Source: an uncultured virus (IMG/VR IMGVR_UViG_3300032167_007852) (Duplodnaviria > Heunggongvirae > Uroviricota > Caudoviricetes). From it: DNA of 64,000 nt. Below, one piece after another: positions 7,801 through 61,718 of this stretch (within the stretch, counting starts at the first letter, position 1; every line of letters starts with the position of its first letter). Location of the stretch: IMG/VR virus record IMGVR_UViG_3300032167_007852, positions 1 through 64,000 of that record, one strand, 5' to 3'. The notes beneath the pieces were generated by a model. That model was not told where the DNA came from, did no database searches, and saw nothing but the letters and a program-made list of their open reading frames with translations. Made by a program: the position numbers and the translations under genes.

Positions 7801-10800
7801 ACATCTAATGAAGTTAATGATTTACATTGATGGAATATACCTTGTATAGTAATTACATTACTAACATCCCAATTACTTACATCTAATGAAGTTAATTTAT
7901 TACAATTATAGAACATATTATGCATCTGAGTTACTTTACTAGTGTCCCAATTACTTACATCTAATGAAGTTAATGATTGACAATTATAAAACATACCAGC
8001 CATATCAGTTACTTTACTAGTATCAAAATTACTTACATCTATCGTAGTTAACGATCTACATAAGTTAAACATTCCATGCATATTAGTTACTTTACTAGTA
8101 TTAAATCCACTTACATCTAATGAAGTTAATAATTGACAACTAGAGAACATACTAGTTAAGTATGCAACGTTACTAGTATCAAAATTACTTACATCTATCG
8201 TAGTTAATTTATTACAATTATAGAACATATATTGCATATTAGTTACATTGCTAGTATCAAAATTACTTACATCTAATGAAGTTAATTTATCACAATATGA
8301 GAACATACTATACATATCAGTTACATTACTAGTATTCCATCCACTAGTATTTACGTTTGTAAGATTTGCACATTTTTTAAACATTAATTTACATGAAGTT
8401 AAATTTTCAGTATTCAAGTAATCGACACTTATTAATGCTTTTTCATCTCCAGGTACATAATCAACATCTACTGAAATGGATGTACCAAATCTAACCATTG
8501 TAGGTAAATTCTCATCTAAACATTTTATAGTTCTAGTTACTATATTAGGTTTAGTTTCATCTTCAATTTCATCTATCCAGAAGTATCCAGTAAATTCAGG
8601 ATTGAATACTGGAAGCAAATCTCTATAGATATTCATATCATATTTATATTGAACTACAACGTTACCAACTTCTTTTAAGTTAACAATATTCCAGTTTTTA
8701 GCAGCTAGATTAACTTCCATATCTAATGTATAATCAGCGTTAGTTACAAAGAATCCTGGGTCTTCTACTGTTCTAGCTGGAATTTGTCCTATTATCATAT
8801 TAATGTTATTAACATTATTACATTGAACGTATTTAAGTCCTATTCTATTAGCGAACATTGAACTATAATCTTTATAAGGTAATGTTACATCTGTAAAATA
8901 AACAGTTTTTAATGACATTCCTTGTTCTGTATTAGCACCATCGCAAGAGAATATATGAGTAGCAGGATTACCAGCATCTTGTAAACTCGATAGATCAAAT
9001 TTACTAATATTGACAGTGATTAGTTTAGTATTATTAAACATTCCATGTACAATAAGTGCTTTGCTAGTATCCCAATTACTTACATCTAATGAAGTTAATG
9101 ATTTACAATATTGGAACACTCCTTGCATAGCATTTACATTACTAGTATCAAAATTACTTACATCTAATGATGTTAACTTATGACAACCAAAGAACATGTA
9201 AGTCATATCAGTTACATTACCAGTATTAAAACCACTTACATCTAATGAAGTTAATGATTGACAATTTTGGAACATCCAACGCATAGCAATTACATTACTA
9301 GTATTAAAACCACTTACATCTAATGAAGTTAATGACTGACAATCAGAGAACATATAACTCATATCAGTTACATTACTGGTATTCCAATTACTTAAATCTA
9401 ATGAAGTTAAGTTTTTACAATTAGTGAATATACCTTGTTTAACACCATTAGCATCAGTATAAACTGTATAAATTAGTTTTTCAGTATTCCAATTAGAAAT
9501 ATTTAATATTGATAATTGTTCACACTTAGAAAATAAACCAGACATATCGGTTACATTACTAACATCCCAGTTTTCCAAACCTATTATTTCAGTTAGTAAA
9601 CGACAATTGAAGAACATTTGTCCAATAGTACCTACATTACCAGTATCAAAATTACTTACATTTATTGAAGTTAATCTTACGCATGTATGGAACATGCCTG
9701 CCATATTAGTTACTTTACTAGTATCCCATCTAGTAAGATCTAGTGTTGTTAATTGAGCACAGTTGGCGAATGAATAATGCATAGTATTTACATTACTAGT
9801 ATTCCAATTACTTACATCTAATGAAGTTAATGATGCACAATCTTGGAAAGATCCATATAAAGTAGTTACATTACTAGTATCCCATTTACTTACATCTAAT
9901 GAAGTTAACCTCATACAAGCACGGAATATATAATACATATTATTTACTTTACTAACATCCCATTTACTTACATCTAATGAAGTTAAATTACTACATTTAT
10001 AGAACATATGATTCATAGTAGTTACATTACTAGTATTAAAATTACTTACATCTAATGAAGTTAAATCAGTACATTGGTAGAACATAGCTTGCATATTAGT
10101 TACTTTACTAGTATTAAAACCACTTACATCTAATGAAGTTAATTTATTACAATAATAGAACATATATTGCATATCAGTTACATTACTAGTATTAAAATTA
10201 CTTACATCAAGATTTACTAACTCAAAACAGCTAGCAAACATATATTTCATATTAATAACCTTACTTGTATTAAATCCTTCTCCAAAAGTTATTGATTGTA
10301 ATTTATGACAACCACTAAACATACCACCTGATTCATTATCGTTAGTAATATATATTAGACTATCTGTATTCCAGTTACTTAAATTAAGTGATAATAAATT
10401 AGAACATCCATGGAATATCATAGCCATATTTTCAACTTTAGAGACATTGAAATTGTTTAATCCTACGATTTCAGTAAGAAGATTAGACTCTCTGAACATA
10501 CCTGCCATAGTAGTTACATTACCAGTATTAAAATTACTTACATCTAGTGCTGTTAAAGCTTTACAAGCTGCAAACATAGTATCCATATCAGTTACATTTC
10601 TAGTATCCCATTTACTTACATCTAATGAAGTTAACGATCTACAATTATCGAACATACTTCTCATATCAGTTACTTTACTAACATCCCAGTTACTTACATT
10701 TATTACAGGAAGTAATTCACATCTATAGAACGTAGCATACATATTAGTTACTTTACTAGTAACCCATTTACTTACATCTAATGAAGTTAATTTATTACAA

Positions 10801-13800
10801 GCACAGAACAACACACTCATATCGGTTACATTACTAACATCCCAGTTACTTACATCTCCTATTGAAGTTAATTCATTACACCCGTAGAACATATGACTCA
10901 TATTAGTTACATTACTAGTATCAAAATTACTTAAATTTAATGAAGTTAATTTATTACAAATATTGAACATTGAACTCATATTAATTACATTACCAGTATC
11001 CCATTTACTTACATCTAATGAAGTTAAATGATTACAGTTATAGAACATAGCATACATAGTAGTTACATTGCTAGTATCAAAATTACTTACATCTATTGAA
11101 GTTAATGATTGACAACTACGGAACATATTATCCATATGATTTACTTTACTAGTATCCCAATCACTTACATCTAATGATGTTAAATTAGTACATTGATAGA
11201 ACATATGACTCATATTAGTTACATTACCAGTATCCCAATTACTTACATTTAATGAAGTTAATGATTGACAATTATCAAACATACGGTCCATTCTAGTTAC
11301 TTTACTAGTATCCCAATTACTTACATCTAATGAAGTTAATTTAGGACATTCATGGAACATATTTTGCATATCAGTTACATTACTAGTATCAAAATTACTT
11401 ACATCTAATGTAGTTAATGAGCGGCAGTTACCGAATAAATATCTCATACTAGTTACTTTACTAGTATCCCAATTACTTACATCTAATGAAGTTAATCTAT
11501 TACAATTATAGAACATATTTTCAATATACATTACATTACTAGTATTCCAATTACTTACATCTAATGAAGTTAACTGATTACAATCATAGAACATATATTG
11601 CATACTAGTTACTTTACTAGTATCAAAATTTTCTCCAATTATCAACTCTTCCATTTTTTCACAATCATCAAACATATGATACATATAAGTTACATTAGCA
11701 GTGTTCCAATTACTTATATCAAGTCTTTTTAAATTATGACATCTCATGAACATATAGTGCATCTGAGTCATATTTTTAGTTTCCCAGTTTTCTAAGCCGT
11801 TTATGTATTCTATATTATTACAATCTCTAAATAATCCATACTCAATTCCACTTATATTAGCACAAGGATATACAACTTTGCTTACATTAAATCCACCTAA
11901 GTCTAAATATTTAAGAGCTTTACAGTTAGCAAACATTGCAGCTATATCAGTTAATTCACCAGTAACCCAGTTACCAATACCTCTAATTTCTTCAAGTTTT
12001 TCACAGTTATAGAACATTTGGTTCATATCAGTTACTTTTTCAGGATTAAAATAAGTAGTATCTCCTAATGTAGTAAGACTTGGACAGTTATAGAACATTT
12101 GCTTCATATTAGTAACGTTTCTAGCAGACCAAGTTCCTAGGTCTAGTTTTTGTAGATTGATACAACTAATAAACATACCATACATATTAGTTACGTTACT
12201 AGTAACCCAACCAGATACATCTAATTTAACTAAATTAGTACAATATGGAATAAAACTATCCATATTAGTTACTTTACTAGTATTCCATTTATGTAGGTCA
12301 AGTTCAGTTATCTCTCTACAAGTTGCAAATGTACATCTCATATCAGTTACTTGACTAGTATCCCAATCACTTACTTTTAATTCTTTTATAACTCTACAAT
12401 CACGGAATGTGAAAGCTAAACTAGTTACTTTACTAGTATTCCAATTACTTACATCTAATGAAGTTAATTTATAACATTGATTAAATGTATACCACATACT
12501 AGTTACATTACTAGTATCCCATTTACTTACATCTAATGTAGTTAATTCATAACATTGATTAAACATACCCCATAATGTAGTAAAATTACGAGTATCCCAT
12601 TTACTTACATCTAATGAAGTTAATAATTGACAGTTATAGAACATGTCTCTTGTAGTAGTTACATTACTAGTGTCAAATCCATTTACATCTAATGAAGTTA
12701 ATGATTTACAACTTGTGAACATACGACTCATATTAGTTACATTACTAGTATTAAAATTACTTACATCTAATGATGTTAAATTATTACAACCAGCAAACAT
12801 ACTTCTCATATTAGTTATATTACCAGTATGCCATCTATCTATCCCAATTATTTCAGTAATAGCATTACAACTATCAAATAATCCATGGTCAACGTCATCC
12901 ACAATACCAACTATATCAGTTACATTACTAACATTAAATCCACTAACATTTAAACTAGTTAAAGCTTTACATCCATAGAACATAGCTTTCATACTAGTTA
13001 ATTTAACACTAGTAACCCAGTTACTTAAGTCTAACGTTGCTAATTTTTCACATCCGTAGAACATATAGTCCATGTTTGTTATATTAGAAACATTTAAATC
13101 TCTTATACCTTGTATACTTTCTAGATTGATACAATCTTTGAACATATTAGCAATTGTTTTATTTTTAGTCATATTTAATCCAGAAATATTGACATTAGTT
13201 AATCCTGAACATCCTTCCAATAATCCAGATAAATCAGTTACATTAACAGTATTAAAATTAGATAAATCTAGAGAAGTTATTGCTTTACAATTTTTAAATA
13301 AGCAAGACATATTAGTTACATTTTGTGTATCAAAATTTATAACTGTACTTATATCTTGTAATAATTCACAACCGTTGAACATACTTCCCATTTTTTGTAC
13401 TTTAGCAGTATTCCAGTTAATCATCCCTTCTATTACTGTCAGGTTAGTACATTCTTCAAACGTTCCTTGGAAAGTAGTTACATTACTAGTATCAAATTTA
13501 CTTACATTTAATGAAGTTAAATTAATACATTTATAAAATGTTCTATTCATATTAGTAACTACTTTAGCATCCCATTTAGATACGTCTAATGTTGATATAC
13601 TTTCACATCTTGCGAATGTGTGACCTAAATGTTCAACTTTACCAACATCCCAATTGGACACATCTAATGCTTCTAATTTATAACAATGGTGGAATGCTGC
13701 TTCCATAGAAGTTACATTACTAGTATTCCAATTACTTACATCTAATGTAGTTAATTCATAGCATCGCCAAAACATCCATCCAATGTGCTTTATATTACCA

Positions 13801-14429
13801 GTATTCCAATTACTTACATCTAATGTAGTTAACATATTACAGTTAGAGAACATACGCATAGCATCTGTAACATTTGTCATGTCTATCATTGCAACGTCAG
13901 CTTTTATTAAATTTGCACAATTATTAAACATATAACGAGTATTAATTGGTGATAATTGTGTTTGTATGCTAAATTTTCTCAAGTTTTCACAACCATTAAA
14001 TGCACCACCTAAATTATCTGATTTGGCAGTTAAGTTTTTTACTTCAACAAGACACTCTTTCATACTATCTGTAGGTGCAGAGCTTTTACCGAATGTGAAG
14101 TGTCCACTTATGTCATAAATACCAGCTTTATTATATATATGCACAGTCGGATCTTCGTTTTCTTGACCAATCACAGATTCATCTATCGTTGAAGCTATAT
14201 TATCTTCAGAAATTTGTAAAAAGTTTCCACTACCGTCTCCCCAACTGATAATCGCATCATCCTCAGTTATGTGATCAGTTGAAGACACTACTTTTAGTGA
14301 ATAATTATCATAAGGAATTTTAACAGTTATTTTTGTTATTCTGTCAATTTTTTCATCAAATAATATTTGATCAATTATATCATTTTGATATCTTCCTTCT
14401 ATACTTTTTCCTCTATATATAATCTTCAT
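1884..14429 (-). CDS. Giant 4181-aa BspA/DUF285-type LRR protein, probable virion fibre/adhesin
   Basis: Roughly a hundred 26-aa repeats (xMFxxCxxLTSLDVSNxDTSNVT) in blocks separated by five related cap domains (A/V-x-Y-x-Y/F-D...IPxFN...RTI...LPxxMRFG); phage-tail-like C-terminus (WLAKNPLTLIYSLAEP); no signal peptide; late-promoter motif upstream. Confidence 0.9.
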   Translation of the reverse strand: MKIIYRGKSIEGRYQNDIIDQILFDEKIDRITKITVKIPYDNYSLKVVSSTDHITEDDAIISWGDGSGNFLQISEDNIASTIDESVIGQENEDPTVHIYNKAGIYDISGHFTFGKSSAPTDSMKECLVEVKNLTAKSDNLGGAFNGCENLRKFSIQTQLSPINTRYMFNNCANLIKADVAMIDMTNVTDAMRMFSNCNMLTTLDVSNWNTGNIKHIGWMFWRCYELTTLDVSNWNTSNVTSMEAAFHHCYKLEALDVSNWDVGKVEHLGHTFARCESISTLDVSKWDAKVVTNMNRTFYKCINLTSLNVSKFDTSNVTTFQGTFEECTNLTVIEGMINWNTAKVQKMGSMFNGCELLQDISTVINFDTQNVTNMSCLFKNCKAITSLDLSNFNTVNVTDLSGLLEGCSGLTNVNISGLNMTKNKTIANMFKDCINLESIQGIRDLNVSNITNMDYMFYGCEKLATLDLSNWVTSVKLTSMKAMFYGCKALTSLNVSGFNVSNVTDIVGIVDDVDHGLFDSCNAITEIIGIDRWHTGNITNMRSMFAGCNNLTSLDVSNFNTSNVTNMSRMFTSCKSLTSLDVNGFDTSNVTTTRDMFYNCQLLTSLDVSKWDTRNFTTLWGMFNQCYELTTLDVSKWDTSNVTSMWYTFNQCYKLTSLDVSNWNTSKVTSLAFTFRDCRVIKELKVSDWDTSQVTDMRCTFATCREITELDLHKWNTSKVTNMDSFIPYCTNLVKLDVSGWVTSNVTNMYGMFISCINLQKLDLGTWSARNVTNMKQMFYNCPSLTTLGDTTYFNPEKVTDMNQMFYNCEKLEEIRGIGNWVTGELTDIAAMFANCKALKYLDLGGFNVSKVVYPCANISGIEYGLFRDCNNIEYINGLENWETKNMTQMHYMFMRCHNLKRLDISNWNTANVTYMYHMFDDCEKMEELIIGENFDTSKVTSMQYMFYDCNQLTSLDVSNWNTSNVMYIENMFYNCNRLTSLDVSNWDTSKVTSMRYLFGNCRSLTTLDVSNFDTSNVTDMQNMFHECPKLTSLDVSNWDTSKVTRMDRMFDNCQSLTSLNVSNWDTGNVTNMSHMFYQCTNLTSLDVSDWDTSKVNHMDNMFRSCQSLTSIDVSNFDTSNVTTMYAMFYNCNHLTSLDVSKWDTGNVINMSSMFNICNKLTSLNLSNFDTSNVTNMSHMFYGCNELTSIGDVSNWDVSNVTDMSVLFCACNKLTSLDVSKWVTSKVTNMYATFYRCELLPVINVSNWDVSKVTDMRSMFDNCRSLTSLDVSKWDTRNVTDMDTMFAACKALTALDVSNFNTGNVTTMAGMFRESNLLTEIVGLNNFNVSKVENMAMIFHGCSNLLSLNLSNWNTDSLIYITNDNESGGMFSGCHKLQSITFGEGFNTSKVINMKYMFASCFELVNLDVSNFNTSNVTDMQYMFYYCNKLTSLDVSGFNTSKVTNMQAMFYQCTDLTSLDVSNFNTSNVTTMNHMFYKCSNLTSLDVSKWDVSKVNNMYYIFRACMRLTSLDVSKWDTSNVTTLYGSFQDCASLTSLDVSNWNTSNVNTMHYSFANCAQLTTLDLTRWDTSKVTNMAGMFHTCVRLTSINVSNFDTGNVGTIGQMFFNCRLLTEIIGLENWDVSNVTDMSGLFSKCEQLSILNISNWNTEKLIYTVYTDANGVKQGIFTNCKNLTSLDLSNWNTSNVTDMSYMFSDCQSLTSLDVSGFNTSNVIAMRWMFQNCQSLTSLDVSGFNTGNVTDMTYMFFGCHKLTSLDVSNFDTSNVNAMQGVFQYCKSLTSLDVSNWDTSKALIVHGMFNNTKLITVNISKFDLSSLQDAGNPATHIFSCDGANTEQGMSLKTVYFTDVTLPYKDYSSMFANRIGLKYVQCNNVNNINMIIGQIPARTVEDPGFFVTNADYTLDMEVNLAAKNWNIVNLKEVGNVVVQYKYDMNIYRDLLPVFNPEFTGYFWIDEIEDETKPNIVTRTIKCLDENLPTMVRFGTSISVDVDYVPGDEKALISVDYLNTENLTSCKLMFKKCANLTNVNTSGWNTSNVTDMYSMFSYCDKLTSLDVSNFDTSNVTNMQYMFYNCNKLTTIDVSNFDTSNVAYLTSMFSSCQLLTSLDVSGFNTSKVTNMHGMFNLCRSLTTIDVSNFDTSKVTDMAGMFYNCQSLTSLDVSNWDTSKVTQMHNMFYNCNKLTSLDVSNWDVSNVITIQGIFHQCKSLTSLDVSNWDTSKVTRMDYMFFYCNKLNALDVSKWNTSKVVNMCGMFQDCYGLTSLDVSNWDTSKVTTMHCMFLSCIGLTQIDLSNWDTSKVTSMSEMFRNVSNVNKLDCGNFDMSQVDIINSMFKAMARLKVLDLTHVEFTADDYQEILLGTNNLEVLKCDKPSTIHKLVELLPDRNGQENPGKLITTVQDRLNPYCFEVLLEKNWEITSEVGLLVADYIFDPAIHNSMIPVMNDGYLDDCVIEDEVILNYVEPTDEVEVVNENEGIMTLEETEGRMVIRRKIYNLKGESPSSIRFGAAYMEQNLYTDEVYHYRLSLIEVLYIDISNCTDITRLFNVCKNLRKVEGMLVTNKITAMSSVFFACKKLTSIDLSNWDTRNVTTIQAMFYHCDSLTSLDLSNWDVSNVSGMTCVFTWCSGLQSLNLNNWNTSNVIHMNGFLQGCALLSKLDLSGFDTSKVTTMNNMLNGCKSTYMDLSNFIINDDCDITYMIDFQKSIKYLKLDDAASLEKLLPQLPTRDVNDKGHIVTYNPDALSSTAKTTLTNKNWVVHSVDECTIAAYGFDNTVCEDVMPIFNEDYDASALSISDHVHGGYFVHRDIMNFEGKLPSTIKFGGDEPDARTNALMQIGDINLTGITDYSEMFKNCTNLNYLNICVGEKTPTNVSHMFEGCSNLELFDIYRMEFDEITSYEGMFAGCNKLCKIRVRDIQNEVFMNILRDENNNFAEVKEIVSSRVHDLTEEERGVIEGLGWGLKGMIAHYAYDAMIANDYIPVFNDEFTDFEVFDYLNERQGIMHRTIESNQLPTLMRFGQSAAGNDGVENIPKNLLSLLEVYDCDTNNLNTMENMFDWCINVIKINANWVTSKVTNMRAMFNNCQKLTSLDVSGFDTSNVTDMRYMFSYCNKLTSLDVSNFNTGNVTTMRSMFANCYNLTSLDVSNFNTSKVDNMADMFWNCSKLTSLDVSKWDTSKVTDMRYMFSYCNKLTSLDVSNFNTGNVTTMRSMFANCYNLTSLDVSNFNTSKVNNISNMFSYCNKLTSLDVNNWDTSNVVAAHYMFDACSSLKVLHLSNWDTTKISLMQFMFASCHTLSVLDLCNFTINENTNIEVLFSSALRVIRCNNAESVRMIVPKLITKEQELEPGIIISDAEISEETLAALAAKNWTVVTSDSFIKVAEYVYDPDVWASLIPEFNAEFVRYFINDEEIEGEGVDGTVKTLVKRTIWSLGDLPIMMKFGYPYGDNLIGNKHKSLLEVNYIDMNAINTMRHMFRLCTNIRKIELNTIGDNVTDMYTAFANCYKLTSLDVSNFNTSNVTNMDYMFYRCESLTLLDVSNFDTGKVTTMEYMFGLCKSLTSLDVSNFDTSKVTIMRRMFAYCESLTSLDVSNWDTSNVTDMYEMFVNCKSLTTLDVSNWNTGKVYRIHSMFYGCGLLESIDLSNFELDKMTNANGFGWMFSFCSNLKEVKLPKFNMSTSYACMFRYATSIKFIDLSNTITITENISELFEECHNLETIDISNIKLNVSSNVNELFYNVGNTLTDIGMVHCDVETINIVAAQTPVQPITIWIGTHLTAEEIASLDQYDHITYSIQLENAERLLLSSPLLEGDEIKVVDGQLCHVHNTGMDVFDGSTDEGWVLGSVGTSNYRIELYSQEVLTYGHSYSNYLSRGFAICDRIPRLYTDTTADATIYPLDKSFISLLDSGTSIYNRAASIKLSREIANTVAEGKAWLAKNPLTLIYSLAEPWTEVIDLPRANIDVELYENGVLYMSDPTASINRVDSDGNMIIDTIQGDSVMNVSNQQFSVELSEESDAPIQTGEILEDNSIRPKFYGRTMVNLMDIIGWGKFIHPTDNYGAYIYNSHDITNKSITITNFNDKPIKIGIYNSEVQNADGRGVDIAANSSVIINLSEVESLFSVLGRFTEGWSEENMHELKNINIFEGELSEDELPENRMNGMRNAFDKYQTTEGKYRVEMVVSNSPIQFGKAGRK
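4761..5153. repeat. Identical 159-bp internal duplication (4761-4919 and 4995-5153) in the LRR gene
   Basis: Identical by eye; offset 234 bp = three 78-bp LRR units. Confidence 0.85.
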
Positions 14430-34414: not shown

Positions 34415-34861
34415 CTACTCATTTATCTTCTTAAGTACCGACATTTCGTTGTCTATATAATCTTCAGATTCCATTACTAAAATTTCATTTAACAATGAAA
34501 CAATTGAAGGTTTGAATACTCTAACTTCTTTAAAATCAAAGTTTATTACAGAATAAACATAGTTAAGACGTAATAATAAATAATATATATCAGGATTACC
34601 ATAAAGGTCTTTAGCTAATAATCTTGGTTGATATCTATATTTAAGATATTCTTGTTCAGTTAATACTACAGTCGTAACATCTTCTAGTAATAGTTCATAA
34701 TATTTTTCATAAAGGTTATACATATTAATTACAAACATATCACCCGAACTGTTTGTAATTACTTCTTTAAAGCATAAATCCTTTATTGTCATTTTTAGTT
34801 CTAATCCCTCTTCAATTACTTCTTTCATTGTAGATCTATTTCTAAAATTACTTCTAGCCAT
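34415..34861 (-). CDS. Putative baseplate wedge protein (T4 gp53/LysM-like)
   Basis: YRYQPRLLAKDLYGNPDIYYLLLRLN resembles the gp53-like RPxxLAxxxYG...WxxLxxN pattern. Confidence 0.6.
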   Translation of the reverse strand: MARSNFRNRSTMKEVIEEGLELKMTIKDLCFKEVITNSSGDMFVINMYNLYEKYYELLLEDVTTVVLTEQEYLKYRYQPRLLAKDLYGNPDIYYLLLRLNYVYSVINFDFKEVRVFKPSIVSLLNEILVMESEDYIDNEMSVLKKINE

Positions 34862-34872
34862 TTAATCACCTC

Positions 34873-35319
34873 TTATAGGAAGTTTGTCAAATATGCATCA
34901 TTTATATTTCCGTTCATAAAACATACAATCATCTTAGCACCTTTCGGTAGATATGCTTCAACTATATGACCATCTATAAATGTCATTTCGTCACCTAGAC
35001 AGTCTTTTATTAAAACGTGGTTTACTACTTTACATCCACATTCTTTTTTCTTTAAAACTGCAGATTTAGACAGTTCTAATCCTGAGAATGTTTTAACTGT
35101 TATAGTATCCGATAATTTGATAGGATTAACAACTTTTGGTTTACATTCAGGATCATTAACCAATATAGACTCCTGTGCTCTGACAGTGGTTTTACTCGTA
35201 TCAACAGTTAACTTAGGTATATATACTTTAACAGTTTCAGCAGGTAAATAAGTTTTCTCTGCTACAGTACAATATTCCAATAAATTAACCTGCAATTCCT
35301 CTAAATTTGATAAATCCAT
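34873..35319 (-). CDS. Putative baseplate hub/spike OB-fold protein
   Basis: VKVYIPKL...LPKGAKMIVCFMNGNINDAY resembles the gp5/GpV OB-fold signature; adjacent to the gp53-like gene. Confidence 0.45.
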   Translation of the reverse strand: MDLSNLEELQVNLLEYCTVAEKTYLPAETVKVYIPKLTVDTSKTTVRAQESILVNDPECKPKVVNPIKLSDTITVKTFSGLELSKSAVLKKKECGCKVVNHVLIKDCLGDEMTFIDGHIVEAYLPKGAKMIVCFMNGNINDAYLTNFL

Positions 35320-54383: not shown

Positions 54384-54863
54384 ATGAAAAAGATTATAAT
54401 TGGAAAATTGATAAAAAATATAGCAATTATAGGTTTAGCCCTTATCTTAACTTTATGTTGTTTAGGGTTGACAGGATGTCAAAATAATGAACCTGAACCA
54501 ACAAAAGAAAATATTCAACAAGAAATTGATGTTGTTGTTTTAGAACAAGAATATTTTGCAATAATGAGATTGATAGATAATGTGTTATTTACAATAACAG
54601 AAGACGAAGATTTAACAATGAACGATGCGATTAATTTATTTGATTATATGACAAAAAATAGAATCAAACCAACACAAAAACTAACTATAGAATTAGATAA
54701 TTGCTTAGACGAATTAATGGAATTAGGATTAAAATATACAATAGCTGCAAACGAACAAGAAAAAGCTGAAATAGAAGAAGAAATAACTTTAGTATTAGAT
54801 AGAATGAATGAACTAATGATTGAAATAGAAGAAATAATAAATAATAATTACGAGTTTATATAA
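54384..54863 (+). CDS. Predicted lipoprotein with acidic helical body
   Basis: Basic N-terminus, hydrophobic core, lipobox LTGC. Confidence 0.75.
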   Translation: MKKIIIGKLIKNIAIIGLALILTLCCLGLTGCQNNEPEPTKENIQQEIDVVVLEQEYFAIMRLIDNVLFTITEDEDLTMNDAINLFDYMTKNRIKPTQKLTIELDNCLDELMELGLKYTIAANEQEKAEIEEEITLVLDRMNELMIEIEEIINNNYEFI

Positions 54864-54948
54864 TTTTATATAACAAATAACAAAATATTAATAGAAAAGC
54901 ATCGAGAAAACTAAATAAAAAATATAAATTAAAAAGGAGAGATTTTAT

Positions 54949-55542
54949 ATGAACAAAAAAGTTAAAAGTTTATTAGTAGCAGGTTTATTAGTATTTGGAA
55001 TGAGCGGAAATGTATTTGCAGACGATGTACATGTTAATGATGCGTTAATTGTTGAAAATATAAAATTAGATGAAGTGTTCATATTCCAAGATAACAATGT
55101 TTTTTTAGAACTAGATGGACCATCTAATATTTTATTAGCAGATATAAAAGCAGCATGGGTTGAAAATTATAATATAACATACGTTAAATTAATATTAAAA
55201 GATGGATCTGAAGTTAATGTACCAATGGAAAAAATAAATGTAGAAAATAATGGGTCTGGATTGATACGTAATAGTGTAGATCTTGACGATCTTGACGATC
55301 CTCTTGGAGCATCAGATGTAAAAACTGTAAAAATAGGAATAGATTATAAATATCCACAAGATGAAGATGGAAACGGTGTGCCTGATTTTAAAGATGACGA
55401 ACCAGTCGATCCACCAGTAGAAGAAGAACCAGAAATACATGATCCAAATACAGGAGATGCTGGTATGATGGTTGGAGCAATAACAGTAGCAGCAGCAAGT
55501 ATAGGATTATTTGTAGTTAATAAAAAGAAAGATGAAGAATAA
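54949..55542 (+). CDS. Secreted cell-wall-anchored protein (sortase substrate, DPNTG)
   Basis: Sec signal peptide ending VFA-DD; acidic Pro-rich stalk; DPNTGD + hydrophobic helix + KKK tail. Confidence 0.85.
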   Translation: MNKKVKSLLVAGLLVFGMSGNVFADDVHVNDALIVENIKLDEVFIFQDNNVFLELDGPSNILLADIKAAWVENYNITYVKLILKDGSEVNVPMEKINVENNGSGLIRNSVDLDDLDDPLGASDVKTVKIGIDYKYPQDEDGNGVPDFKDDEPVDPPVEEEPEIHDPNTGDAGMMVGAITVAAASIGLFVVNKKKDEE

Positions 55543-55605
55543 GTAAAATAGAGTGGAGAAAGATTCTCCACTCTATTTTTTATTTTAGTATAGGAGGTAT
55601 AATTT

Positions 55606-56274
55606 ATGAAATTAAAGAATGTTATAAATGTAATATTAATTGCAGTATTATCTATAAGTTCATGGGAAATTGGTCAAAAGCAATGGGAATATTATAAAGC
55701 TAAGAAAACTTATGAAGAAGTACAAAACGAAAAAACACGATCAAATGATACTAGTAAGTATTTAAAAGAGCATGGATATGATTGGATAACAGTAGAAGGA
55801 ACTGCTATAGACTATCCTGTTATGACATATACAGATAATATTTTTTATATCAATCACGATTATCAAGGGAATGAAAGCAATAGTGGAGCTATATTCTATT
55901 GCTCTAGTGATGAACCTTTTGATGGTAAGTATACAATGTTGTACGGACATAGTATGAAAAATGGAACAATGTTTAATAACTTACATTATTTTCAAAAAGA
56001 CCATCAAAGATTTAAAGAGTCTGTATTGACTATAGAAACGGCAGAAAATACAAAAACATTCAAGCCGTTTGCTTATTATGTTACAAATAACAATTTCTTT
56101 TATAAACAAATTGACAATATGGAAACATCTGATGCTGTGGCATTGATAAAACAAAATAGTGATTATTTTATTAATGGTGTTGAATATGATGAGAATAGTC
56201 ATATAGTTGGATTATATACATGTGATTATAGTGTTAAGAATGGTAGATTGATTGTATTTTATATATCAGAATAA
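55606..56274 (+). CDS. srtB: Class B sortase
   Basis: N-terminal anchor; WITVEGTAIDYPV, LYGHSMKNGTMF (His), LYTC (Cys), NGRL (Arg). Confidence 0.9.
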   Translation: MKLKNVINVILIAVLSISSWEIGQKQWEYYKAKKTYEEVQNEKTRSNDTSKYLKEHGYDWITVEGTAIDYPVMTYTDNIFYINHDYQGNESNSGAIFYCSSDEPFDGKYTMLYGHSMKNGTMFNNLHYFQKDHQRFKESVLTIETAENTKTFKPFAYYVTNNNFFYKQIDNMETSDAVALIKQNSDYFINGVEYDENSHIVGLYTCDYSVKNGRLIVFYISE

Positions 56275-56322
56275 TTTTTTATAATACGATATACAATTAT
56301 TTAGAAAAGGAGCGTGAAAAAA

Positions 56323-56520
56323 ATGGAAATGTTAATACAATTAATAGCTTGGATATTATTTGGATTCATAGGATTTAGATGGGCAGAGAAATTAAATGTT
56401 GAACATGGAATGAATTTTGACGCTAGAATTTGGGCAGCAATCGGATTCCTATTAGGTTTAATAGGATTAGCTGGATTAGGAATATATGGGCATTACAAAA
56501 TAAGACATAAGGGTGAGTAG
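56323..56520 (+). CDS. Small two-TM membrane protein
   Basis: Paralog of 19156-19368. Confidence 0.7.
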   Translation: MEMLIQLIAWILFGFIGFRWAEKLNVEHGMNFDARIWAAIGFLLGLIGLAGLGIYGHYKIRHKGE

Positions 56521-56522
56521 AG

Positions 56523-56711
56523 ATGAAAGGAACTTTCAATTTAGTTTGCGATGTGCTTATAATAGGTATGTTATTAGTCACAGGATTAATCGTTATACAA
56601 GACGTGGTTATGAAAGGTTTATTATCTGCTGTAGCTTGTGCAGCAATATTCCTTAAATTGAAAGAACTATATTTAGTAATAAAGAAAAATCATGATAAAA
56701 ATAAAGAATAA
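56523..56711 (+). CDS. Small two-TM membrane protein
   Basis: Two hydrophobic segments; terminator follows. Confidence 0.65.
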   Translation: MKGTFNLVCDVLIIGMLLVTGLIVIQDVVMKGLLSAVACAAIFLKLKELYLVIKKNHDKNKE

Positions 56712-56820
56712 GTTATGGTGATTTAAGTCACCATAACTTATTTTATTACTGTAAAAAGGTGCTATTTCAATGCTATATTATATAGATGAAGTAAAATAAA
56801 AATATTTGGAGGTAGATACC

Positions 56821-57171
56821 ATGGCTATAAAAAGAGAAGATATAATGAAAAAAAGAAATAAAGAGTTTAGTCTTAGTGAAGCGATAGATTTAGCAGCTGT
56901 TGAAGCAATGAAAGGAAATGAATATAGTAGAGCAATAACAATGTATTGCTTAACTCATAATTCAATGAGTGATAAAGAAAAAGAAGAAGCCTTAGATGAA
57001 TTAGGAGAATTATATGTGAATGATTTTTGTAAGAAAATTATATCTTGGGCAGAAGAGTCTGTAATAAAAGATGAATTTGTTAAAAGGATACCAGAAGTTA
57101 GAGATGAATGGAAGCAAACACATGTTGAGAGCTTAAAAGCACAATTTAAAGAATGGGATAACTTAGATTAG
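56821..57171 (+). CDS. Early hypothetical protein
   Basis: Early-promoter variant at 56765; GGAGGT RBS. Confidence 0.7.
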   Translation: MAIKREDIMKKRNKEFSLSEAIDLAAVEAMKGNEYSRAITMYCLTHNSMSDKEKEEALDELGELYVNDFCKKIISWAEESVIKDEFVKRIPEVRDEWKQTHVESLKAQFKEWDNLD

Positions 57172-57222
57172 TAATTTATATGTTCCAAAAAATAAATTAT
57201 AAAAATTTTAGGAGGTAAGTAT

Positions 57223-58137
57223 ATGAGAGAACTAAATATAAAAGGATTTGTAAATGAAATGAGTTATGATTTAACAATGCAAGAATTAGAAGCAGCTGTA
57301 ATAGATTATCAAGAAGTGATAATAGATTATTTTGTAAATAACATGTATAATTATAAAGCTAAGAAAGAATTTAATGAAGTGTGTGAAATCATTAGAGGAA
57401 AAAGATTTATGAATACAATTTCATATTTAATAAATTCAGGAGATTCAAGAATTAACTTTAATATGGCATTTGTATTATATACAGCAACACATCATATAGA
57501 AGATAAAGAATTAGCAAATGAAGCTTATATGTTAGGATATCAATTAAGAGAAATAGAATTAGGAATGAATATAACAGGACATAAAGAAACTGATATAGTA
57601 ATATTAATGTCTTCAGTTAAAACAGTTAGGGGATATGAAGTAACTCCATTCTTTAGATCTAAAGAAGTTGAAAACATTTTAGAAAATTTACCAGAGATAT
57701 TATTTAAAGCATATAATGGTAAATATTCAATAAGTGCTATAAGTGAAAATGTTTTAGGAGCAATATTAACACAAGCAATTCCAGATTTACAACCAGAAGA
57801 ATTTGTAACAGCATGTTGTAAAGCAGGAATAGATAAGAATATAGATGAAAAACATAAACCATATGCAACAAGAATACAATCATTCTTATATAAAACTTGT
57901 GGTGCATTATCTGAAGAAAAATTTGAAAAAGCATTACACGCAGCTTGTAATTCAATAGTAAGATTTAATGAAAGAACAGGAAGAAAAGAAACGTTAATAG
58001 ATAAATATCTTAATTATAAATTATTAGAAGCAGTTGTAAATAATAAAGATATGAAAGTTCCTGAAAATATAAAATTAGCATATGCTAAAATGAACAAATT
58101 TAAAATCAATAACGAAAAATTTAAACATTTATTCTAA
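57223..58137 (+). CDS. Hypothetical helical protein
   Basis: 304 aa, AGGAGGT RBS. Confidence 0.75.
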   Translation: MRELNIKGFVNEMSYDLTMQELEAAVIDYQEVIIDYFVNNMYNYKAKKEFNEVCEIIRGKRFMNTISYLINSGDSRINFNMAFVLYTATHHIEDKELANEAYMLGYQLREIELGMNITGHKETDIVILMSSVKTVRGYEVTPFFRSKEVENILENLPEILFKAYNGKYSISAISENVLGAILTQAIPDLQPEEFVTACCKAGIDKNIDEKHKPYATRIQSFLYKTCGALSEEKFEKALHAACNSIVRFNERTGRKETLIDKYLNYKLLEAVVNNKDMKVPENIKLAYAKMNKFKINNEKFKHLF

Positions 58138-58208
58138 TGATGAATCAAATAATCAATAAGGATAAATTTATCCTTATTGATTAACTATATTTAATATAAC
58201 AAGTAATT

Positions 58209-58560
58209 ATTGTTAACATGATTAAGTTTAATAATAATTAAAAATACAAAACTGAATATTCTAATACCGTAGGCTAAGGTCTAAGACTATGCCAAAAGTA
58301 TGAACCTGAGAGAAAGAGAGGGGTTAACCTGAAAAGGTGTGAATGGTATGAGTACCAGCCAAGCTCGAGTAATTAGGTGAATGGATATTCTAATGTTATA
58401 GTAAGCTAAGGATTTTAAAATCTATGCTGAAGACATTAATCCTGAGAGAAAGAGAGGGGTTAACCTGAAAAGGTGTGAATGGTATGAGTACCAGCCAAGC
58501 TCGAGTAATTAGGATATAATAAGTATATACAACATTATTAGACTTAATCATGTTAACAAT
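58209..58560 (+). ncRNA. Candidate novel structured RNA with two tandem units inside a long terminal stem
   Basis: 29-bp inverted repeat 58207-58235/58534-58562; identical 73-nt GC-rich repeats 58305-58377 and 58441-58513; covarying receptor hairpins; AACA-N6-TA motif puts +1 at 58209. Confidence 0.75.
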
Positions 58561-58591
58561 AAAAATTATAAAAATAAAGGAGAATGATATT

Positions 58592-59122
58592 ATGAATAGT
58601 GAATTAAAATTTTACAAATTAATGAAGTATGGTAAAGAAGTTGAAATTGGTTATGTTGCTTATAATGACGGTATATGGGTGAAATATAAAGATATTGGAA
58701 ATTATTTTGGGTACCGAATGCATACGTATTCAATAATATGGAATGATATAAAAGATGAATATAAAGATACAATAACTGTTAGTTTCACGGATCAATATGG
58801 TGACGTTTATCCAGATGAACAAGATTTCATTCATATATCAGTGATATTAGATTTAGCAAGACGAAATGATGAATTAAGTAATAATGCTAGAACTATGGTT
58901 TACGATTTAGAAAAGAATACACCATTAGAAGGAGAAGTATCTGAAGCTGAAGCTGTTAATGAATTCTTAGAAATTTGGAGAGACCCGAATACAACTAATG
59001 TTAAAATAACATATACAGTTGTAGATGAGGAAACAAAGAAACGTGAAGAGTTGTGGAAAGCTTGGAGAAGATCAGGTGCTAAAACAACATGTCCTAGTTG
59101 GATAAAAGATGTATTAAAATAA
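58592..59122 (+). CDS. BRO-N-like DNA-binding protein
   Basis: IWVKYKDIGNYFGY...FIHISVILDLARR resembles BRO-N (WFxxxDxxxxLGY...FIxExxxYxL). Confidence 0.6.
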   Translation: MNSELKFYKLMKYGKEVEIGYVAYNDGIWVKYKDIGNYFGYRMHTYSIIWNDIKDEYKDTITVSFTDQYGDVYPDEQDFIHISVILDLARRNDELSNNARTMVYDLEKNTPLEGEVSEAEAVNEFLEIWRDPNTTNVKITYTVVDEETKKREELWKAWRRSGAKTTCPSWIKDVLK

Positions 59123-59143
59123 TCATGTGAGGAGAAAAAACAG

Positions 59144-59257
59144 ATGACAAAACTTACAAAATATTTAATAGCAAATGGTTCAGTTACATCAATGAACCGT
59201 AAGGAAACATTAATAATGAGAATAAAAAGGAAGTTTCGAAGCTTCCTTTTTTGTTAA
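59144..59257 (+). CDS. Possible 37-aa peptide
   Basis: GAGGAG RBS; the 3' end overlaps a terminator hairpin. Confidence 0.35.
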   Translation: MTKLTKYLIANGSVTSMNRKETLIMRIKRKFRSFLFC

Positions 59258-59321
59258 AATTTATATGGGTATATACAATGAATTAATAAAATTATGGAAT
59301 AGGAAAAGGAGAATAATTAAT

Positions 59322-61718
59322 ATGATAAAAGAATTTGATAGAGTTGATAATTTTAAAAAGTTAATTGAAAAAAACGCAACTAAAATATTTCAAAAGAATG
59401 TAGATCAATTAAATGTATTTGAAAGATTTGACGTTTTAGCAAATTCTTTAAAAGATACAATGTCAGAAGATTGGAAAAGATGTAATCAAAATCTTGAAGG
59501 GAAGAAAGAGGTACATTATTTTTCAATAGAGTTCTTATTAGGAAAACAACTTAAATCAATAATTTTAAATAGAGGATTAGAAGATGTAGTGAATGAAGTT
59601 ATGGATGACCTTGATTGGGATTTAAATGAATTAGTTGAAGTAGAACCAGAACCAGCTATAGCAAACGGAGGATTAGGTAGATTAGCTGCTTGTTTCATAG
59701 ATTCAATGGCGTGTTTAGAATATGCAGGTTATGGTCAAACTATAAGATATAGACATGGGTTGTTCAAACAAGAAATATTTAATGATGAGCAAGTTGAGTT
59801 ACCTGATAGATGGCTTAAGAATGGTTATTATGCTTGGGATTCAAAATCAGGTGAAGAATATATAATCAAACTTAGAGGTTCGGTTAGATTTGAAACTAAT
59901 GGAAATGATTTAGTTCCAATTCTTGAAAACTATGAACCAATAGTAGCAAGAGCATATGATATACCAGTTCCTGGTTATGAAAATAATACAGTGAACTATT
60001 TAAGAACTTGGGAAGCTGATATGCCTTCTTATAATATTCTTGATGAATGTGGAATAAACTATTGTCATGATAATAACATGCAAAGAAGAAGGACATTAAT
60101 AAATCAAATATGTGAGAATCTTTATCCAGATGATTCTACACATGAAGGTAAAGAATTAAGATTAAAACAAGAATATTTCCTATGTTCTGCAGGTATACAA
60201 TCTTTAGTTAATAAATTCAAAAAACGTGGAGTGAATTTAAGAGAACTAGATAAACATCTTGCAGTTCATATAAATGATACACATCCATCTTTAGTTATAC
60301 CTGAATTAATGAGGGTGTTAATGGATGAAGAAGGATTAGGATGGGATGAAGCTTGGAATGTAACAACTAAAGTTTGTAGTTATACAAACCACACAATAAT
60401 GCAAGAAGCTCTTGAAGTATGGAGTGGGTATATGTTACAATCTTTAATTCCAAGAATATATATGATAATACAAGAAATAGACAGAAGATATGTAGAGTAT
60501 TTAAGAAAAGTAAAAGGATATAATACATCTAAAATAGATAGAATGAAAATAATAGATAACTACGGAAACGTACGTATGGCTAATATGGATTGTATGTGTA
60601 GCTATAGTATAAACGGAGTTGCTGCATTACACACAGAAATATTAGAAGAAGAAACTCTTAAAGATTTCTATATGGATAAACCACAAGCATTTAATAACAA
60701 AACAAATGGTATAGCACATAGAAGATGGTTATTATTAGCAAATCCTGATTTAACTAGATTCATAACTACAATATTAGGAGAAGGTTGGAAACAGGATCTT
60801 AAACAAATGAAAGAATTAGAACAATTCCATGATACAGGTGCAATATTATGGACAATAAATGATATTAAAATGCTTAATAAACAAAGATTTATAAGAGAGA
60901 CAGGATTGGATTTAGATCCTAATAGTATATTCGACGTTCAGATAAAACGTATTCATATGTATAAAAGACAAATAATGAACGTATTAAGAATAATGATGAT
61001 ATACAACGATTTATTAGAAAATCCAGAAAAAGAATTTTATCCTATGACATTTATAATGGCTGGTAAAGCGGCAGCTAGTTATAGATCAGCTAAGAATGTT
61101 ATAAAAGTATTTAATAAATTAGCAAAAGTTATAAATAATGACGAACGAGTAAATGGAAAAATGAAACTTGTATTTATAGAAGATTACAATGTTTCTAAAG
61201 CAGAATTAATAATACCTGCTACAGATATATCTGAACAAATACCAACTGCATCTAAAGAAGCATCTGGAACATCAAATATGAAATTCATGATGAATGGTGC
61301 TTTAACATTAGGTACATTAGATGGTGCTAATGTTGAGATAACTGAATATGTAGGAGAAGAAAATATATTCTTATTCGGTTTACGTAAAGATGAAGTTTTA
61401 AATAGATATGCTACATGGACAGATTTAAGTGGAAGACATATAGTTAAAACAAACAACAAGATAGAAAAAGCAATGGAAATGTTAAAACAAATTGATAGAG
61501 CTGGTGAAGAATTATATTGGGAATTAATGTCAAATGACCATTTCTTCACATTAACAGATTTACAAGAATATCTTGATAAAACATATGAAATGAATAGTTT
61601 ATACAAAAATAACAGAAGAGAATGGAACAAAAAATGTTTAATAAATATAGCAAACAGTTTCCCATTTACAACTGATAGGACTATCAAGCAGTATGGGGAC
61701 GAAATATGGTTTAAATAA
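59322..61718 (+). CDS. glgP: Glycogen/starch/alpha-glucan phosphorylase (GT35)
   Basis: NGGLGRLAACF, LRLKQEYF, NDTHP, YTNHT, NKTNGI, KRIHxYKRQ and the PLP motif EASGTSNMKFMMNG. Confidence 0.95.
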   Translation: MIKEFDRVDNFKKLIEKNATKIFQKNVDQLNVFERFDVLANSLKDTMSEDWKRCNQNLEGKKEVHYFSIEFLLGKQLKSIILNRGLEDVVNEVMDDLDWDLNELVEVEPEPAIANGGLGRLAACFIDSMACLEYAGYGQTIRYRHGLFKQEIFNDEQVELPDRWLKNGYYAWDSKSGEEYIIKLRGSVRFETNGNDLVPILENYEPIVARAYDIPVPGYENNTVNYLRTWEADMPSYNILDECGINYCHDNNMQRRRTLINQICENLYPDDSTHEGKELRLKQEYFLCSAGIQSLVNKFKKRGVNLRELDKHLAVHINDTHPSLVIPELMRVLMDEEGLGWDEAWNVTTKVCSYTNHTIMQEALEVWSGYMLQSLIPRIYMIIQEIDRRYVEYLRKVKGYNTSKIDRMKIIDNYGNVRMANMDCMCSYSINGVAALHTEILEEETLKDFYMDKPQAFNNKTNGIAHRRWLLLANPDLTRFITTILGEGWKQDLKQMKELEQFHDTGAILWTINDIKMLNKQRFIRETGLDLDPNSIFDVQIKRIHMYKRQIMNVLRIMMIYNDLLENPEKEFYPMTFIMAGKAAASYRSAKNVIKVFNKLAKVINNDERVNGKMKLVFIEDYNVSKAELIIPATDISEQIPTASKEASGTSNMKFMMNGALTLGTLDGANVEITEYVGEENIFLFGLRKDEVLNRYATWTDLSGRHIVKTNNKIEKAMEMLKQIDRAGEELYWELMSNDHFFTLTDLQEYLDKTYEMNSLYKNNRREWNKKCLINIANSFPFTTDRTIKQYGDEIWFK

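Follow-up and report, generated by a model that had tools for sequence, protein, structure and literature searches.

What is the RNA, if any, that is written in the non-coding gap at positions 58138-58591 of this stretch, and what does it do for the gene behind it? The window, that is the whole 64-kb stretch analysed, is the first half of a 128,249-nucleotide (nt) IMG/VR virus record, and the original prediction, made from its letters, had proposed that the gap specifies a structured RNA in which two tandem units are enclosed by a long terminal helix, ahead of a BRO-N gene. The observation of this element was confirmed and the interpretation put on it was partly supported: the element is a divergent subtype of a diverse and undescribed family of twin-unit RNAs of cattle-gut megaphages, and it forms, together with the Bro-N-like gene downstream, an insertion cassette in which RNA and gene move together. 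The features on which this account draws are the following (positions are those of the window).

58138-59130, plus strand: insertion cassette, made up of terminator hairpin, RNA element and Bro-N-like gene (right edge approximate)
58150-58183, plus strand: terminator-like hairpin ending the upstream gene (57223-58137), a perfect 17+17 palindrome, from the list of terminator-like sites
58196-58206, plus strand: promoter-like motif ATAACAAGTAA, containing most of the predicted AACA-N6-TA, which extends 3 nt further
58207-58235, plus strand: terminal helix, 5' arm (repeat finding and fold)
58254-58261, plus strand: unit 1 inter-unit segment GAAUAUUC, pairing with 58383-58390 in the minimum free energy (MFE) fold
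58264-58301, plus strand: unit 1 hairpin, with outer stem, CGUA/AAAA loop and GCUAAG/UAUGC receptor-like motif (58273-58278/58288-58292)
58305-58377, plus strand: unit 1 core domain, with P2, 6x6 purine loop, GAG/CUC, GGU/GCC, GAAA hairpin (58331-58334) and UGAG hairpin
58383-58390, plus strand: unit 2 inter-unit segment GGAUAUUC (MFE fold)
58392-58437, plus strand: unit 2 hairpin, with outer stem, AUAGUA/GAA loop and receptor-like motif (58405-58410/58423-58427)
58441-58513, plus strand: unit 2 core domain, identical to that of unit 1, with GAAA at 58467-58470
58534-58562, plus strand: terminal helix, 3' arm (repeat finding and fold)
58577-58594, plus strand: Shine-Dalgarno sequence AAGGAG and ATG (58592) of the Bro-N-like gene, the ATG 30 nt past the helix
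58592-59122, plus strand: Bro-N-like gene, 176 amino acids (aa) (fold and family alignment)

Structure of the window element

The two arms of the inverted repeat (58207-58235/58534-58562) were found to be 97% complementary, with 298 nt between them, and their single mismatch, a T in the 5' arm facing a G in the 3' arm, gives a U.G pair on the plus strand, as had been stated. Between the arms, a 73-nt sequence occurs twice at a spacing of 136 nt, with 100% identity between the copies (58305-58377 and 58441-58513), and there are also two shorter repeat pairs (TGAATATTCTAAT/TGGATATTCTAAT and GTAGGCTAAGG/GTAAGCTAAGG). The hairpins that precede the copies (58264-58301 and 58392-58437) are unlike in sequence and share one fold, just as the original prediction had drawn them, and the fold proposed for the 73-nt domain, a three-way junction with two hairpins, was borne out. 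When unit 1 was compared with unit 2, 3 of the 29 predicted pairs proved to be altered on both sides while remaining paired. The plus strand folded with an MFE of -98.0 kcal/mol, whereas 100 shuffles gave -65.7 +/- 5.1, 0 of them being as good (z -6.4); the minus strand gave -78.4, the plus strand thus being the better by ~20 kcal/mol; the inner part of the element has a G+C content of 38% in a genome of 27.9%. A structured RNA on the plus strand, as predicted, is therefore backed by fold energy and by the G.U mismatches and covariation described below.

The element had been offered as one without a known family, and a scan against Rfam 15 indeed gave 0 matches at gathering thresholds in the 64-kb window. 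At an expect value (E) of up to 10, 3 weak matches were seen within 58100-58650 (17-21 bits, the thresholds being 42-45), all of them at 58129-58208, outside the units. The related elements introduced below had no Rfam match, and a literature search turned up no description of such an RNA, supplementary catalogues of candidate RNAs being outside its reach. One contig, from run X17, joined 58304 to 58441, skipping 58305-58440; this one-unit form, which was not used as evidence, may be a copy-number variant or an assembler's collapse of the 73-nt repeat.

Related loci and covariation

Four related megaphage records were found via a topoisomerase-like protein (75-88% identity). A long-period tandem-repeat scan of records G000, G001, G003 and G004, combined with maps of their open reading frames (ORFs), yielded four elements, and a protein-guided scan added record G005, with two elements; G002 has one more. 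Across five records, a tandem element was found directly upstream of 8 of the 8 full-length genes of the Bro-N-like family; 7 of these loci are distinct, G005_93 being near-identical to G003_164. The loci share one layout, in which an upstream terminator hairpin is followed by a long helix (in 6 of the 7 distinct loci), tandem units, a Shine-Dalgarno sequence and the Bro-N-like gene. Unit lengths range from 123 to 145 nt, with two copies in seven loci and 2.9 copies in G003_16, and a hairpin equivalent to that at 58150-58183 stands before the element in G001_42, L048 and L050 and, by eye, in G001_18, G003_164 and G003_16. The predicted arrangement of two units within a long terminal helix therefore recurs in related phages, in unlike sequences and with covariation. 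The link of the whole family to Bro-N-like genes had escaped the original prediction, as had a helix between the units, the limitation of the GAAA/receptor pair to one subtype and the cassette nature of the locus.

Flanking helices of 28-33 bp, unrelated in sequence, were present in six distinct loci:

Window: 29 bp, 1 G.U (28 Watson-Crick)
G001_18: 31 bp, 2 G.U and 3 mismatches
G003_164: 28 bp, no non-Watson-Crick position
G003_16: 33 bp, 2 G.U
G005_197: 30 bp, 1 G.U
G002: about 31 bp, 1 G.U and 1 U/C position

All 7 of the 7 transition mismatches in these helices are G.U on the plus strand, with 0 A.C, which argues for an RNA helix on that strand and not for a DNA palindrome. G001_42 is without the long helix and bears a local 9-bp hairpin at the same place; its order is terminator hairpin, two units (121 nt identical, 139-nt spacing), second hairpin, Shine-Dalgarno sequence and ATG. 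From the end of the helix or hairpin to the ATG the distance is about 25-30 nt at every locus, as judged by eye on the sequences. The substrate of ribonuclease III (RNase III) is uninterrupted double-stranded RNA of ~20 bp or more, a length that the predicted 29-bp window helix exceeds. Stems processed by RNase III flank ribosomal RNAs and phage T7 transcripts, and there, as here, the sequences flanking a structured RNA form a long helix; here, in contrast, the base of the helix lies ~15 nt before the Shine-Dalgarno sequence, and a cut, which is predicted, would also reshape the messenger RNA (mRNA) leader.

Covariation was assessed on an alignment of five standard units (L048A, G003_164A, G001_42A, G001_42B and G001_18A). 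The standard unit consists of a closing helix P1, a hairpin Ha with a (U/C)CAAAAG loop, P2, and an invariant P3 (GGU/GCC) that carries two hairpins, P4 (with a UAAA loop in standard units) and P5; its conserved junction and loop letters are GAAGU, UUGUCAA, CAAAAG and GGU/GCC. Of 184 cells, 96.2% were paired, and 17 of 38 pairs were altered on both sides, a level reached by 0 of 500 shuffles, while controls with slid partners gave 29-41% paired and 1-4 such pairs. Covariation in the predicted stems of homologues is thus present. When thirteen units were aligned to the model built from the five standard units (R2), the result was 95.1% paired, with 27 of 38 pairs compensatory, in an alignment fitted to the model.

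R2 recovered the three units of G003_16, which were absent from its training, at 29.8-37.7 bits. With filters off, it found both window units on the plus strand and in register, at 16.5 bits (unit 2) and 16.0 bits (unit 1), with E ~1e-3 for the 551 nt searched. The part of the window units that aligned is the core (GAAAG-AGAGGGGU, P4, GUGAAU, P5, AGCC, AGUAAUUAGG), and the arrangement P2-P3-P4-P5 with GGU/GCC was found in the two of them. They are without the closing P1, the GAAGU/UUGUCAA junction strands and the CAAAAG-loop hairpin, the one P1-like stem that they have closing the receptor hairpin only, and so the window constitutes a separate subtype; the element of G002, missed by the R2 search altogether, is likewise separate. 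This search left out G004, where the family gene lies at a contig end. A model of the window's own two units (R1), run on G001-G004, gave nothing real: its best match, at 18.7 bits, was a site common to G002 and G004 that has 18 nt in place of the core, and the others were weaker. Outside the window, R2 gave a weak match of 80 nt at G000:108764-108843 (21 bits, E 0.01).

That the units are tandem and self-contained, that those of the standard subtype are closed by their own P1, and that conserved junction letters stand beside P1 would suit self-cleaving or otherwise catalytic RNAs that are processed to monomers. No known ribozyme family matches, however, the window units are without a closing P1, and an RNA-library contig (X19, 58350-58513) spans the boundary of unit 1 and unit 2, and so we regard catalytic units as very improbable.

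The original prediction had further identified, in each unit, a GAAA tetraloop with its 11-nt receptor. The letters GCUAAG...UAUGC are indeed present in both units, flanked by helices on each side and with the G.U closing pair, and the GAAA tetraloops sit on Watson-Crick stems (ACCU-GAAA-AGGU, 58327-58338 and 58463-58474). The consensus of the 11-nt receptor is CCUAAG...UAUGG, an asymmetric internal loop in a helix that pairs with a GAAA tetraloop, and the module is known from the P4-P6 domain of group I introns and from tectoRNA. The window units resemble it in having a 4-bp stem capped by GAAA and a helix that contains GCUAAG...UAUGC, and differ from it, in a comparison made at the level of sequence, in that the outer C:G of the canonical receptor is G:C. 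The module is limited to the window subtype. Five standard-type loci are without it and have UAAA in the equivalent hairpin and, where the window has the receptor hairpin, a hairpin with a (U/C)CAAAAG loop; that first hairpin is a conserved AUGUAAG/CUUACAU stem with a CAAAAG loop in the standard subtype and has the 11-nt receptor letters in the window. Loop and receptor hairpin thus differ jointly between the subtypes. This exchange of a UAAA loop and a conserved hairpin for a textbook GAAA/11-nt receptor points to a specific contact: probably, the first hairpin touches the P4 loop in three dimensions across the family, and the lineage of the window swapped in GAAA and its receptor. A CUAAG...UAUG in the core of G003_164 was considered as a receptor and rejected by eye, not being so arranged around P3.

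A loop E motif had been predicted as well. The consensus of this sarcin-ricin (bulged-G) motif is AGUA opposite GAA between two helices; it held for the unit 2 hairpin (AUAGUA/GAA) and for both domains (GAGUAA/GAGAAA), whereas the unit 1 hairpin has the variant CGUA/AAAA. In a test at the sequence level, the equivalent 3' strand read AGUA in L048 and AAUA in G001_18 and G001_42.

Why, then, should there be two units? Each unit has an 8-nt segment that is able to pair with its twin. In the window, GAAUAUUC faces GGAUAUUC; the segment is GUAUAUAC in G005_197 and G002, GGUAUAUC in G003_164, GUACUGUAC in G001_18 and, in units B and C of G003_16, UGUAUACA. The units of G001_42 differ only in their first ~20 nt, and their segments, GAUAUGAA and UUCAUAUC, are mutually complementary, neither being palindromic. 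The inter-unit helix was formed in 6 of 6 full-length MFE folds, and as modelled it offers a possible reason for the presence of two copies. A run variant, 58384 G>A, turns the segment of unit 2 into one identical to that of unit 1.

Associations of this kind are known in trans. ROOL, GOLLD and OLE are ornate RNAs that are reported to form homo-oligomers (PMC12286853). They resemble the present family in being large and ornate (ROOL in rumen or phage settings) and in that identical copies associate by RNA-RNA contacts, and they differ in being single-copy genes that assemble in trans, whereas the present family has its two copies joined in cis and held by a clamp. The window element has no Rfam match to them.

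The cassette and its Bro-N-like gene

Contigs of 3 runs (X18, X19 and X9) were found to stop at 58137 and to continue as GGAGAAACATATGAC..., a sequence that comprises the ribosome site and the start of a small ORF (59145). The same small ORF comes within 9-15 nt after the homologue of the upstream gene (ORF304, 304 aa) in 4 of 4 related records. These cassette-free contigs, together with the relatives, indicate that 58138 to ~59130 is present in this lineage only, and RNA and gene constitute an insertion cassette; by eye on ORF lists, cassettes lie at different sites in different phages. A terminator-like hairpin stands behind the small ORF itself (59145-59258, 37 aa, MTKLTKYL...), and in the 4 relatives the ORF is followed by an IF1-like gene.

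Could the locus then act as DNA, either as a transposon resembling a miniature inverted-repeat transposable element (MITE), with terminal inverted repeats, or as iteron or operator sites for the Bro-N-like protein? A 29-bp inverted repeat around a short non-coding insert, palindromic 8-mers, a neighbouring gene with a DNA-binding fold and an insertion polymorphism would all suit such an element. Yet compensatory changes keep six helices in register, 7 of 7 helix mismatches are G.U on one strand, the 128-kb record has only one such locus, the gene is part of the insertion, which extends beyond the repeats, and the 8-mers of G001_42 are mutually complementary and not palindromic, so that we hold a DNA-level role to be the least probable of the explanations weighed. 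The transposon with terminal inverted repeats was rejected as a candidate in its own right, since the repeats are present but the locus is one in 128 kb and the insertion, 58138 to ~59130, overshoots them. A retron non-coding RNA, another setting of inverted repeats, was dropped too, as none of six ORFs scanned (54949-61718) matches the Pfam reverse transcriptase.

The gene was found to start at 58592, after AAGGAG, and not at 58550. Its designation as a BRO-N gene stood at the level of the family, through Pfam, Atlas neighbours and fold, but not for the window's own protein, as the 176-aa product itself had no Pfam, PHROG or PADLOC hit. In a wider family alignment, 8 of 14 members match Pfam Bro-N weakly (best E 1.9e-4), and the Bro-N set accounts for 28 of 30 Atlas neighbours. 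The AlphaFold model of the 176-aa protein (mean predicted local distance difference test score 73.6) resembles, over residues 1-111, the N-domain of CpGV Orf22 (4ye7; Z 9.1, root-mean-square deviation 3.6, 95 residues aligned), and also the APSES DNA-binding domain of Mbp1 (Z 6.8), Bqt4, Swi6-N, Dachshund and DdrC. Taken together, the family's Pfam hits, its Atlas neighbours and the fold place the protein with Bro-N proteins. Foldseek gave no match against the PDB at E <= 0.001, and PDB sequences searched with a profile yielded a single hit (E 0.11).

Among metagenomic proteins, the 176-aa protein (ORF176) had 21 matches (46-100% identity), of which the first was its own cluster and the other 20 fell at 66-84% and 46-48%. 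Wider searches returned no relatives: in IMG/VR none were found with the upstream 304-aa protein or the ORF176 alignment; in metagenomes of the Joint Genome Institute (JGI) the ORF176 alignment gave 163 pattern hits, none a relative, and the family alignment A4 only G001's own contig; in GTDB genomes A4 gave 146 pattern hits, none a relative; and among GenBank phages tblastn with ORF176 and with ORF226 of G001 gave no match. Searches with the RNA had the same outcome. Blastn with the window and L048 elements found no match in GenBank phages; three pattern scans of IMG/VR built from the window unit gave 0 stretches each; the standard-subtype pattern gave 19 loci in IMG/VR, 4 already known and 15 single hits that R2 rejected, and 29 loci in GTDB genomes, from which R2 gave one 15-bit match at E 0.17. 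Within the related records, ORFs of 178-185 aa at G003 164333-164818, G005 92537-93022 and G002 54650-55144 show similarity to the family over its C-terminal half only (E 1e-10 to 3e-9). Those of G003 and G005 sit immediately upstream of a twin-unit RNA; around that of G002 (156 nt downstream) no repeat was found.

A repeat RNA that precedes a gene of ~176 aa raises the idea of a type III toxin, which was lowered after the protein model matched Bro-N/APSES-like domains. The locus does recall the ToxIN and CptIN systems in its tandem RNA repeats immediately upstream of a gene for a protein of ~170-230 aa, in its mobile cassette and, in one locus (G001_42), in a terminator-like hairpin between RNA and gene. 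The repeats of those type III toxin-antitoxin systems measure 34-45 nt, whereas those described here measure 123-145 nt, are richly folded and come in two copies only; the protein, moreover, has a Bro-N/APSES-like fold and no PADLOC hit. Among the matches listed in the fold search there was no ToxN-type chain, which does not exclude one.

Transcription of the element had been predicted to begin with the terminal stem, from a late-promoter motif, AACA-N6-TA, at 58198-58209. The motif is present, but it occurs 164 times on the two strands of the 128-kb record and is therefore too loose to carry weight. A longer form, ATAACAnnTA[AC], has 17 hits in the record and lies 38-79 nt upstream of the plus-strand ORFs at 54949, 62490 and 63493; by eye, it also precedes the 5' arm or the first unit in 4 of 7 loci (the window, G003_16, G003_164 and G001_42). 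A phage promoter at this motif, before the 5' arm, is plausible on these grounds. A motif TATAACAAaTAA was noted at window positions 54870, 62452 and 63444, before the same three genes, and a weak sigma-70-like site in the 5' arm (9 of 12) was dropped, being no better than expected from shuffles. As for expression, contigs from RNA libraries cover 58350-58513 (X19, depth 12.8) and 58467-58900 (X18, depth 3.9), the latter crossing the 3' arm into the gene; since RNA libraries can contain DNA, this cover lends weak support.

A stable RNA set free at the helix and directed at the host, as a decoy or sponge for defence or for an RNA-binding factor, with the gene as a mere companion in the cassette, would accord with an accessory cassette that has its own promoter-like motif and an upstream terminator, with a long helix suited to excision and, weakly, as contig depths go, with a depth in X19 of 12.8 over unit 2 versus 4 over the gene. 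The strict co-occurrence of the RNA with one protein family, 8 of 8, across subtypes that lie beyond the model's recognition argues instead for a functional tie, and we consider a purely host-directed RNA unlikely.

Alternatively, the units may be aptamers of a tandem riboswitch or ligand-sensing leader that controls the Bro-N-like gene. The element is invariably found in the 5' leader, on the gene's strand and about 25-30 nt ahead of the ATG, its junction and loop letters are highly conserved, its two cooperative units recall tandem aptamers, and G001_42 has its terminator-like hairpin between RNA and gene, the only locus to do so. In the tandem glycine riboswitch, two homologous aptamers occupy one leader, and both there and here homologous folded domains are held in cis by inter-domain contacts; here, in contrast, the units are near-identical and clamped at their ends by 28-33 bp, there is no Rfam match and no evident platform or ligand, and the gene in context is a phage Bro-N-like gene. 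Nor was an expression platform seen in the window: there is no terminator-like site between element and gene, as predicted, and the Shine-Dalgarno sequence is unpaired in the MFE fold, which together weaken the option. Nothing in metabolism ties Bro-N-like genes to a ligand, the periphery of the element varies greatly among subtypes, and no Rfam aptamer matches. A riboswitch is accordingly an explanation of which we are quite doubtful. No known RNA family or system fits the twin-unit RNA, which may prove to be a riboswitch or an antitoxin of new shape.

The record that carries the cassette encodes a DnaB-like helicase, gyrase/topoisomerase subunits, a 4181-aa protein, a sortase together with an LPXTG protein, and a glycogen phosphorylase, a gene set that points to a large phage with a Gram-positive host. 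Near-identical sequence turned up in 20 of the 24 public runs listed (13 studies), all with the label feces, bovine gut or gut metagenomes. The LPXTG-anchored protein adjoins the sortase, and the glycogen phosphorylase is full-length (Pfam E 7e-264; window 54949-56274, 59265-61718); as auxiliary genes they are unusual, and they suggest a Gram-positive host. The 4181-aa ORF (window 1884-14429) is rich in repeats with a period of 78 nt (26 aa), and a similar repeat-rich region was seen in G004 at ~92-134 kb. The related megaphage G003 has a group I intron (L035:11843-12155; Rfam RF00028, 101 bits, E 7e-25), and a scan of the window for transfer RNAs and transfer-messenger RNA found none.

Further short tandem repeats, likewise intergenic, lie at L017:10515-10675, G001 79955-80121, G003 34938-35140 and G004 34786-34990. 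They have a period of 84-88 nt, 1.8-2.4 copies that are 100% identical and a G+C content of 38-52%, and adjoin genes of a family of 354-361-aa proteins; the G001 10515 copy consists of reiterated small hairpins (AUAGAGCCUGCCCUCUAU). These repeats may represent a second family of RNA or DNA elements.

A proposed role for the twin-unit RNA

The explanation that we favour, and to which we give rather better than even credence, is that the gap holds a structured plus-strand RNA, a divergent member of its family, that travels in a cassette with its gene and acts as a partner or regulator of the Bro-N-like protein. The role of partner or regulator is preferred because RNA and protein stay together across diverged subtypes and move as one cassette. 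Transcription would begin at the promoter-like motif, immediately ahead of the 5' arm, and continue into the gene; host RNase III would cut the long perfect helix, a predicted substrate; and the cut would free a twin-unit RNA of ~330 nt, leaving the Bro-N mRNA with a short leader. Release by RNase III is probable to judge from the helix. The RNA would then act on or with the Bro-N-like protein, whether as an autoregulatory binding site, a partner or a neutraliser, and in the window subtype GAAA and the 11-nt receptor would replace UAAA and the conserved hairpin in what is probably the same tertiary contact. A more specific form, in which the twin-unit RNA is a dedicated partner, a cis-dimeric RNA that restrains a protein dimer in the manner of an antitoxin, or guides it, we put forward only tentatively, as a possibility that we rate well below even.

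Several points weigh against the explanation that we favour. The family rests on 7 distinct loci, all from 6 records of related phages, and had no member among GenBank phages, other IMG/VR records, JGI metagenomes or GTDB genomes. The window units score only 16 bits, with a first hairpin that does not align to R2, and units within a locus, being mostly identical, add no independent covariation. The inter-unit helix crosses P1 of the standard unit, which implies a pseudoknot or an alternative, domain-swapped fold. The RNA-library contigs may contain DNA, and in both runs cover is absent over 58172-58341, which we did not read as an absence of RNA. Lastly, Bro-N is a domain that binds DNA and is not known to bind RNA; Bro-N-like genes are widespread in phages and large DNA viruses, poorly understood, and have no known RNA partner.

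New classes of large folded RNA that are well supported come up rarely, and the design of this one is unusual: a single transcript carries two near-identical units, which a short helix connects and a long helix clamps, and so amounts to a built-in RNA dimer, which at ~330 nt and with its symmetry is a good structural target. The cassette, in turn, provides a direct way to ask whether an RNA controls a bro gene. If the reading as a dedicated partner is true, this would be the first RNA partner for the Bro-N/KilA-N superfamily, RNA and gene would constitute a selfish, self-regulating cassette, and such cassettes could explain the multi-copy, mobile bro-type genes of large DNA viruses.

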